Source: Anaerolineae bacterium (GTDB lineage: Bacteria > Chloroflexota > Anaerolineae > SpSt-313). Taken from it: 53,313 bases of DNA. The first letter of the stretch is position 1; every line of letters starts with the position of its first letter. Below are positions 13,576 to 13,920 of this stretch, piece by piece. The notes beneath the pieces were generated by a model that saw nothing but the letters and a program-made list of their open reading frames with translations, had not been told where the DNA came from and made no database searches. The stretch is taken from NCBI GenBank assembly GCA_034436375.1, contig DAOTVS010000286.1:1-53313 (forward strand), written 5' to 3'. A program made the translations under genes and the position numbers.

Positions 13576-13920
13576 CCGTAAGCGTAAAACGTGAACCGTA
13601 AAACGTAAACCATAAAACGTAAAACGTGAACCGCAAAACGTAAGGCGTGATACCTGGGGGGAGTATAGCACAAAAGGGGGGGCTGTCAACGGATTCTTGA
13701 CACGGATTGCACGGATTGGGCTCGCCGGGGGTGCAAAGATCTCTGCTTCACGACCCTCGGAACCCTGATCAGGAGGCCCGCAACCCTTCCCGTCATGGCG
13801 GAGTATAATCCGTGCAATCCGTTTCCTAATCCGTTGACAGCCCCCGTATTTTTCCGCTACAATCATCCCTCTACATAATCATCGGGCGTTTCGATCCGGA
13901 GACCTTACGCATTACGTTTC
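13576..13920. repeat. Heptamer-armed palindromic element (copy E9) interrupted by a nested type 2 element
   Basis: 70-nt arm 13576-13645 (ACGTAAA/ACGTGAA units) and short arm 13903-13920. The split core (13646-13677 plus 13846-13902) totals 89 bp. Confidence 0.75.
13678..13845. mobile_element. Palindromic element type 2, copy b, inserted inside the core of element E9
   Basis: Termini GGGGGCTGTCAACGGATT...AATCCGTTGACAGCCCCC. Arms with ACGGATT units match copy a at 4626-4783. The core 13718-13806 is 89 bp. Confidence 0.6.

Follow-up and report, generated by a model that had tools for sequence, protein, structure and literature searches.

A spacer between two genes of an Anaerolineae-like contig combines two kinds of palindromic repeat, one of them a gene-less copy of a family linked to GxxExxY nucleases

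Insertion sequences (IS) and their MITEs (miniature inverted-repeat transposable elements), including the Correia (NEMIS) elements of Neisseria, have terminal inverted repeats in common and occur as long, gene-carrying and short, gene-less forms. Correia elements and many IS ends also carry an outward -35 hexamer in the terminus, from which hybrid promoters are formed. Homing endonuclease genes of the PD-(D/E)XK type are normally located in introns or inteins of a single conserved target gene. For Nostoc, Elhai and colleagues reportedly described in 2008 small dispersed repeats (SDR) of about 21-27 nt, very small palindromes nested in other repeats including heptamer arrays; the nesting is said to have been used as an argument for mobility, no associated enzyme is said to have been identified, and the work is taken here as a lead only. 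Here, a 351-nt spacer (13568-13918) was analysed in a 53,313-nt stretch of Chloroflexota DNA (contig DAOTVS010000286.1, 65% G+C, Anaerolineae-like; the whole stretch is referred to as the window). The nearest named relatives of its proteins are from Anaerolineae metagenome-assembled genomes (MAGs). The spacer separates two co-directional minus-strand genes, for an ADP-ribosylglycohydrolase (ADPRGH) and a CPBP membrane protease, and combines two kinds of intergenic palindromic repeat of the Chloroflexota into a mosaic. Of these, the inner element (158-168 nt), termed type 2, is a gene-less copy of a widespread family whose arms bracket or immediately adjoin the genes of a GxxExxY nuclease subclade. 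It stands between two inverted arrays of heptamers.

Type 2 palindromes work most like a REPIN or MITE family, but one paired with a PD-(D/E)XK nuclease. Like the repetitive extragenic palindromic (REP) sequences of Proteobacteria, their doublets (REPINs) and the associated RAYT transposases (PMC3116915, PMC3337134), they are short, many-copy intergenic palindromic doublets without target duplication, occur on both sides of a small enzyme gene and form clusters, tandem arrays and mosaics. The partner of type 2 is a GxxExxY nuclease, whereas RAYT is a Y1 HuH transposase. Type 2 arms measure about 35 nt, contain three 9-mer repeats and begin with CTGTCA, whereas a REP hairpin has 20-40 nt and carries GTAG or CGTC as its tag (PMC3733652). 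Unlike the species-specific REPINs, the arm sequence is conserved across classes of the phylum, and the gene can sit inside the type 2 unit. With IS/MITE pairs the family shares terminal inverted repeats (the arms), long and short forms, one short form with a gene remnant and, at the window copy, an outward -35 hexamer in the terminus that gives a hybrid promoter match. Unlike MITEs, type 2 elements lack a target-site duplication and a DDE transposase, their short copies have cores unrelated to each other, and promoter formation is not family-wide. The long forms with the same ends, which would correspond to the parent of a MITE (L134, L140, L185), encode the GxxExxY nuclease, for which a transposase activity is only conjectural. 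The defining features of MITEs (duplication, shared core) and of REPs (GTAG/CGTC hairpin, Y1 transposase) are both absent. As in homing systems, a small nuclease gene lies amid conserved symmetric sequence with many gene-less copies, which might be targets or homology arms; unlike there, the palindrome is dispersed and intergenic, and homing leaves the spread of gene-less copies unexplained.

For the distribution of the family, one genome per species was scanned with CTGTCAACGGATT-N6/7-CGGATT, and all counts are lower bounds. Arms of the form CTGTCAACGGATT-N6/7-CGGATTGMACGGATT were found at at least 117 loci, spread over at least 40 MAGs from Anaerolineae, Caldilineaceae and Chloroflexia; copies were also present in MAGs labelled outside the phylum, one as 'Abditibacteriales' and one as Poribacteria. 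As a consensus, the arm reads (purine-rich)CTGTCAACGGATT-nnGGGAA-CGGATTGAACGGATT; it has a CTGTCA cap and three (A)ACGGATT repeats and is not self-palindromic. Among the matches listed, 79 facing arm pairs were present, with a modal length of 89-92 nt and further modes near 112, 125, 148 and 158 nt; the loops between the arms vary among copies. Arms or whole units also occur as tandem arrays (L021, L037, L053, L115, L156). A second window copy (copy B, 4621-4788) matches the spacer copy in its arms and has an unrelated core; it begins 5 nt past a stop codon and ends 47 nt ahead of the next ATG. A metagenome scan of the window's lineage yielded four more distinct copies of the GCACGGATT variant, of which three (L129/L142, L133 and L143) measure 158-159 nt, as do both window copies, and one (L132) 100 nt.

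Open reading frames (ORFs) from the motif-selected loci were clustered all against all, and protein families were then identified. One small-protein family directly adjoins the arms. It was identified as GxxExxY (TIGR04256) / PDDEXK_3 (PF13366), with no other family match and with TIGR04256 scores of 108-111 bits at a cut-off of 35. In two loci the gene is enclosed by a single arm pair (L134, 4711-5301; L140, 785-1422), and L140 (691-1514) consists of three tandem units separated by CACCCG, with the gene in the middle one. The core of a 179-nt unit in L063 (1316-1494) still encodes the last 22 (C-terminal) residues of the nuclease; this unit is therefore a deletion derivative. As an unbiased test, four homologues (P0198, P0130, P0126, P0226) were fetched by protein similarity alone, and each of the four genes proved to be flanked on either side by arms or entire palindromes (L149, L156/L158, L159, L185). 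The caps in L185 (1350-2040; G7/C7) resemble those of the window copy, and in L156 (1090-2350) about nine right arms are arrayed on either side of the gene with a 37-nt period.

The nuclease subclade comprises 758 members at E ≤ 1e-40, many of them on very short contigs; the named ones are all Chloroflexota. Its members end in ...NRQWLFVPDWL, and the catalytic D...ExK residues (D76, E86, K88) were invariant in 36 sequences. An AlphaFold (AF2) model had a pLDDT of 87, with Cas4, lambda exonuclease and RecE as best folds, and searches of PDB by sequence, PADLOC and PHROGs returned nothing informative. Two samples with the window's lineage also contain the L140 gene copy. Two other GxxExxY subclades were accompanied by repeats of their own: a different palindrome with CACAGAG-type 8-9-mer arms on both sides of the gene (L073, 6504-7059), and 15-16-mer arrays after the gene (L089, 2890-3095). 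This hints that GxxExxY nucleases are in general paired with a palindrome whose arms consist of tandem repeats. PDDEXK_3 is listed as 'function unknown' (PMC3424549), and in the literature examined on GxxExxY, PDDEXK_3, TIGR04256 and PF13366 the repeats are unmentioned.

From these data, the inner element of the spacer very probably belongs to a nuclease-linked dispersed repeat family. It is plausibly mobile, now or formerly, because it is a discrete unit of a widespread family that has both gene-carrying long forms and a deletion derivative. A more far-reaching proposal, to which we give somewhat less than even odds, is that a GxxExxY PD-(D/E)XK nuclease recognises the arms of type 2 palindromes and has these as its non-autonomous partners, and that each subclade has its own tandem-repeat-armed palindrome; the whole would be a REPIN/RAYT-like replicator whose enzyme is of another class. 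The window's heptamer-armed elements may form a further set of nuclease partners.

The arrangement of the spacer is given in Table 1. The first-pass annotation had described a 70-nt arm, an 18-nt inverted arm and a palindrome between them, and all of these were recovered in place. The long arm was detected by Tandem Repeats Finder (13583-13643, period 14, 4.4 copies, 82% matches, score 73) and as direct-repeat family D1 (13576-13645); its CPBP-proximal end overlaps the Shine-Dalgarno sequence of CPBP (GGAG, minus strand). A heptamer motif search of the window gave 28 matches vs 0.11 expected. The short arm CCTTACGCATTACGTTTC is 80% complementary to 13626-13645 (inverted repeat I3) and shares 2 nt with the ADPRGH stop codon. 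Both arms are inverted CGTAANN arrays with the family-typical ends GTAAGG / CCTTAC.

The type 2 element has identical 18-nt termini, GGGGGCTGTCAACGGATT, at 13678-13695 (plus strand) and 13828-13845 (minus strand) with 0 mismatches, where shuffled sequences predict 0.06 occurrences at ≤3 mismatches. G5/C5 caps are followed by the conserved arms 13683-13717 and 13806-13840 (CTGTCAACGGATT-N6/7-CGGATTGCACGGATT), of which the inner repeats 13699-13717 and 13807-13825 are 95% complementary (I2). The arms enclose a non-conserved core of 86-88 nt (about 13718-13805). That 13678-13845 is a self-contained element held in so far as it is a discrete family unit; the palindrome itself outruns these termini, with complementarity extending to 13663-13860 (33 nt, 79%; I1) by pairing of 13663-13677 with 13846-13860. 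The boundary conserved family-wide is CTGTCA...TGACAG, here 13683-13840 (158 nt), and outside it only a purine-rich/pyrimidine-rich bias is seen. The first 17 nt of the core (13718-13734, GGGCTCGCCGGGGGTGC) recur exactly at 31540-31556, (BLAST E = 0.005), at a distance of 18 kb and within a coding region, which may be chance in GC-rich DNA.

As it stands, the distance between the two heptamer arms is 257 nt, as the first-pass annotation had given it, whereas the window's nine uninterrupted heptamer-armed elements have 82-91 nt between theirs (84, 84, 82, 84 and 91 nt under one uniform arm definition, and 83 nt at 8840-8970). No other long core was seen in the window; collinear cores of about 250 nt had been named as what would speak against a discrete insertion. 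When 13678-13845 is removed, 32 + 57 = 89 nt remain, within the canonical range as had been noted; removal of 13683-13840 only leaves 99 nt. Among themselves, the canonical cores show homology: in leave-one-out tests, nhmmer matches were significant in 7/8 cases, the alignment is near-gapless with common motifs, and true copies score 26-46 bits against the core profile. The copy at 8840-8970, which was outside the training set, was recovered by the core-only profile at E = 4e-7. That the inner element was inserted into such a canonical core is a possibility we rate just short of an even chance.

Table 1. Coordinates of the spacer features and of the related elements in the window
Feature	Position	Strand	Length	Remarks
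CPBP (Rce1-like protease) ATG	13565-13567	-		Rce1-like domain confirmed by Pfam
Long heptamer arm	13576-13645		70 nt	~10 units, CGTAAAA/CGTGAAC type, ending ...CGTAAGG
Left spacer, heptamer arm to type 2 element	13646-13677		32 nt	contains TATACT 13664-13669, - strand
Sigma-70-like match TTGACA-16-TATACT, upstream TG	13662-13689	-		11/12; -35 in type 2 terminus, -10 in flank
Type 2 palindromic element	13678-13845		168 nt	perfect 18-nt inverted termini; inverted repeats I1, I2
Mirror-image match TTGACA-18-TACAAT	13834-13863	+		11/12; antisense into ADPRGH 3' end
Right spacer	13846-13902		57 nt	contains TACAAT 13858-13863, + strand
Short inverted heptamer arm	13903-13920		18 nt	CCTTACGCATTACGTTTC; inverted repeats I3, I5, I6
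ADPRGH stop codon	13919-13921	-		domain confirmed by Pfam
Second type 2 copy (copy B)	4621-4788			conserved boundaries 4626-4783, 158 nt
Reference heptamer-armed element, CGTAAAA subfamily, uninterrupted	20479-20680			82-nt core
Further heptamer-armed elements	~1366-1508, 7510-7647, 8840-8970, 18414-18554			last one nested in 18375-18587
Further heptamer-armed elements (continued)	~28291-28440, 30927-31050, 35984-36139, 37173-37311

A promoter scan of the spacer found two sites vs 0.2 expected, both composed of a -35 hexamer in the type 2 terminus and a -10 box in the flank. The minus-strand match is aimed at CPBP, with the ATG about 95 nt downstream, and belongs to the four best of the first 20 kb. 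Both matches are on a par with the window's top sites; the organism's own promoters follow the standard consensus, as seen at 21842 and 23278 (12/12 each). A hybrid promoter was likely created by this particular junction, and it may be used. Outward promoters as a property of the family were considered and rejected, with a -10 box at the right distance in just 4/201 family termini, two of the four being those of the spacer copy. Extended -10-like motifs show a weak bias, pointing outward in 7 and inward in 0 of 335 flanks.

The two symmetric matches and this bias would also fit a regulatory palindrome evolved in place, that is, an immobile bidirectional promoter/operator of CPBP bound by a factor recognising the CGGATT repeats. 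AATCCGT repeats at roughly helical spacing do lie upstream of the -35 hexamer, and the structure is fully conserved in four strains. Such an origin is nevertheless improbable: besides the rarity of outward promoters, convergent spacers are occupied as often as background, the plus-strand promoter is aimed into the 3' end of a gene, and the same arms are found in hundreds of unrelated loci and around the nuclease gene.

Still less probable is an element acting at the RNA level, in which a nested hairpin in an ADPRGH-CPBP transcript would serve as terminator, processing site or stabiliser, as proposed for REP/BIME and Correia sequences. The position between co-directional genes is suited to this, and the region folds well beyond shuffled sequence (RNA -157.6 kcal/mol, z = -6.8; DNA z = -5.5). 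Against it, G.T mismatches in the arms number 85 on the sense vs 83 on the antisense strand, without the sense-strand excess of G.U-compatible mismatches; convergent and divergent contexts are neither depleted nor enriched (tandem/convergent/divergent 36/9/7 vs background 425/92/91); and heptamer-armed cores are present in both orientations relative to genes, 6 plus vs 2 minus in a leave-one-out test. An intrinsic terminator or structured RNA was also rejected on the lack of a terminator-like T-run in the region, of strand-specific pairing conservation and of an Rfam match; tRNA genes and Rfam families gave no matches anywhere in the window. Together, the type 2 results point to a DNA-level element and speak against an RNA hairpin, terminator or promoter module.

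The history that best accommodates the above begins with a short type 2 form reaching the ADPRGH-CPBP spacer as one unit and without target duplication. The process would have been initiated by the cognate nuclease, which we infer to bind or cut the arms and to mobilise short forms; the route might be homing-like copying from another copy or movement of an excised hairpin or duplex. The unit would have come to rest with an inverted heptamer array on either side, probably after hitting the middle of a heptamer-armed element that was already there, with the canonical 84-nt core as target. As a side effect, each terminal TTGACA has a -10-like flanking box at a distance of 16-18 nt, which would provide CPBP with a near-consensus promoter. 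For this chain as a whole, we estimate a probability of roughly 0.5.

Several observations weigh against it. No empty site, which the first-pass annotation had proposed to look for, was found by exact-protein look-ups of ADPRGH and its 90% cluster: L001-L003 hold the same 351-nt spacer, and L004 and L005 break at or inside the type 2 element, all of these strains being 99.7-100% identical. Because the L004 break coincides with a cluster of single-nucleotide polymorphisms seen in L005, we attribute it to variation between strains rather than to an empty allele. The next relatives of ADPRGH are 61-66% identical, and the three that were looked up (63-66%) have different neighbours. No target-site duplication marks the junctions, here or in other copies: the lengths of flanking direct repeats of 75 elements equalled the shuffled expectation, and type 2 flanks show a purine/pyrimidine bias plus a modest excess of complementarity, nothing more. 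The residual 32 + 57 nt had no nhmmer match to the core profile under six excision boundaries; its placement among canonical cores by MAFFT was ambiguous in both orientations, and BLAST of the residual, including the right 57-nt spacer, against all sequences collected gave only chance 12-17-mers. The resemblance to the core of the copy at 20549 that had been reported for it is limited to 8-9 nt (CCTGGGGG), without backing from the profile search. No GxxExxY gene is present in the 53-kb window or in any examined sequence of its lineage, and rather than being the spreading enzyme, the nuclease might travel as a passenger or act as a homing gene that targets the palindrome. The cores of four same-lineage copies (window 13683-13840 and 4626-4783, L142 1339-1496, L133 1711-1869) are equal in length (86-87 nt) yet identical at chance level only, whereas simple copying of one master predicts otherwise. 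The scarcity of outward promoters in the family counts in the same direction.

Other nested cases leave a residual of only 0-21 nt (window 18375-18590, L132, L018), and nesting therefore need not mean insertion into an 84-nt core. This leads to an alternative in which a single core, the 86-nt type 2 core, is wrapped by two layers of arms. The heptamer arrays would have arisen or expanded outside an existing type 2 element, or two independent gene-end arrays would face each other by chance, and 89 nt would be a coincidence. At 18375-18587 (to 18590), the second nested case of the window, outer heptamer arms (18375-18400 and 18564-18587) do stand 11 and 10 nt outside a complete inner element with a single 84-nt core (18414-18554). 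Heptamer-like arrays in L132 lie 6 and 2 nt from the type 2 termini, and the 14-mer arrays in L018 lie 0 nt from them. Lone heptamer arrays are found at gene boundaries in the window (6998-7032, 8320-8347, 12730-12758, 13293-13317), and the very unequal length of the two outer arms (70 vs 18 nt) is expected if they grew independently by slippage. The residual also lacks a match to the core profile. This lack is not decisive, because the element 35984-36139, with CGTCAAA-type arms, likewise has a non-homologous core (88 nt, pyrimidine-rich and unstructured). Moreover, the residual length falls inside the narrow range of 82-91 nt, which we judge to happen about one time in ten by chance if the spacers sum to anywhere between 0 and 100 nt, and both outer arms end in the usual ...GTAAGG / CCTTAC... 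junctions. On balance, layered arms appear rather unlikely, though clearly less so than the regulatory or RNA-level explanations.

For insertion into a pre-existing element, the outcome is thus mixed. The observation made in the first-pass annotation was confirmed, and its interpretation as a nested insertion is partly supported; its description as direct evidence of movement was too strong, given the missing empty site and target-site duplication and a residual unlike the core family.

Three further ideas on the type 2 element were rejected. A fold-back origin of the cores was dropped, as only one of four (copy B) is self-complementary, and an inversion switch was dropped with core orientation identical across all versions of three loci. 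Integron attC sites (RYYYAAC / GTTRRRY) are matched at 5/7 by the termini TGTCAAC / GTTGACA; the copies are single, lie in housekeeping spacers and occur in every orientation, and an integrase was looked for in the window only. The core length of 86-87 nt is close to the 82-91 nt of the heptamer-armed family. About 17% of type 2 copies have additional inverted repeats outside, some of them tandem 7- or 14-mers. In L018 (4300-4790), the type 2 unit lies within 14-mer tandem arms and itself encloses a CCTGTCATT...AATGACAGG palindrome, and in L052 (5068-5372) a 34-nt GC-rich hairpin is inserted in the right arm. A variant of 110-112 nt was found in four different MAGs (L046, L071, L079, L080); the last three have similar flanks (TGGGTGCGTTTCA...GGGGCA / TATGCCC), and the variant may be kept at an orthologous site across species. 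Type 2 arms were carried by 11 viral contigs, the nuclease gene by 0/11 of them.

The outer arms recall other intergenic tandem heptamers near gene ends, namely the short tandemly repeated repetitive (STRR) sequences of cyanobacteria, the GGGAATC heptamers of Xanthomonas (PMC4692102) and (GATAGRA)n of Chloroflexus (PMC6749651). A Xanthomonas genome has 70-75 sites at which such heptamers form convergent inverted pairs, like the outer arms here (PMC4692102). Unlike those repeats, the units of the window are CGTAANN, are not G-rich and have no quadruplex potential, and unlike bare microsatellites, the pairs hold a homologous core (about 84 nt) between them and form a dispersed element. Isolated cores are mostly unstructured. 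Three proposals on them were rejected. Constant co-orientation with genes seemed true with a profile from plus-strand copies and failed the leave-one-out test; the downstream gene's promoter was sought in the cores, with just one weak site (9/12) inside any canonical core; and a small ORF (AAGG-N5-ATG) was inconsistent among copies by reading.

The unpaired arrays at 12730-12758, 6998-7032 and 8320-8347 coincide exactly with the ends of genes: the stop codon of a major facilitator superfamily (MFS) gene is overlapped by one of them, and one ends in GAGG right before the ATG of a 164-aa ORF (7027-7521). Within the CPBP ORF, a heptamer array, CGTAATCTGTGATCCGTAATACGTAAGG (13290-13320), is in frame and included in the public gene call (265 aa), where it separates an N-terminal hydrophobic segment of about 83 aa from the Rce1-like domain; it may be a one-time intergenic arm that is now read through, e.g. 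via gene fusion. On viral contigs, CGTAAAA arrays were mostly AT-rich chance matches. The exceptions are two GC-rich contigs (about 60% G+C; putative viral, IMG/VR), L175 (8500-8600) and L179 (4900-4960), in which CGTAAAA/CGTGAGA arrays stand immediately upstream of a Shine-Dalgarno sequence with its ATG.

Small repeats nested in a bacterial spacer are unremarkable per se, and the main value of the locus is the lead it gives to the GxxExxY family. Should the nuclease maintain or spread the palindromes, the REPIN/RAYT arrangement would have been invented a second time and independently, and a large orphan protein family would gain a role, with a function that is testable via binding and cutting of arm DNA. 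At the locus itself, a near-consensus predicted promoter for the CPBP membrane protease gene takes its -35 hexamer from the element, which would be a case of a repeat rewiring the expression of an operon.

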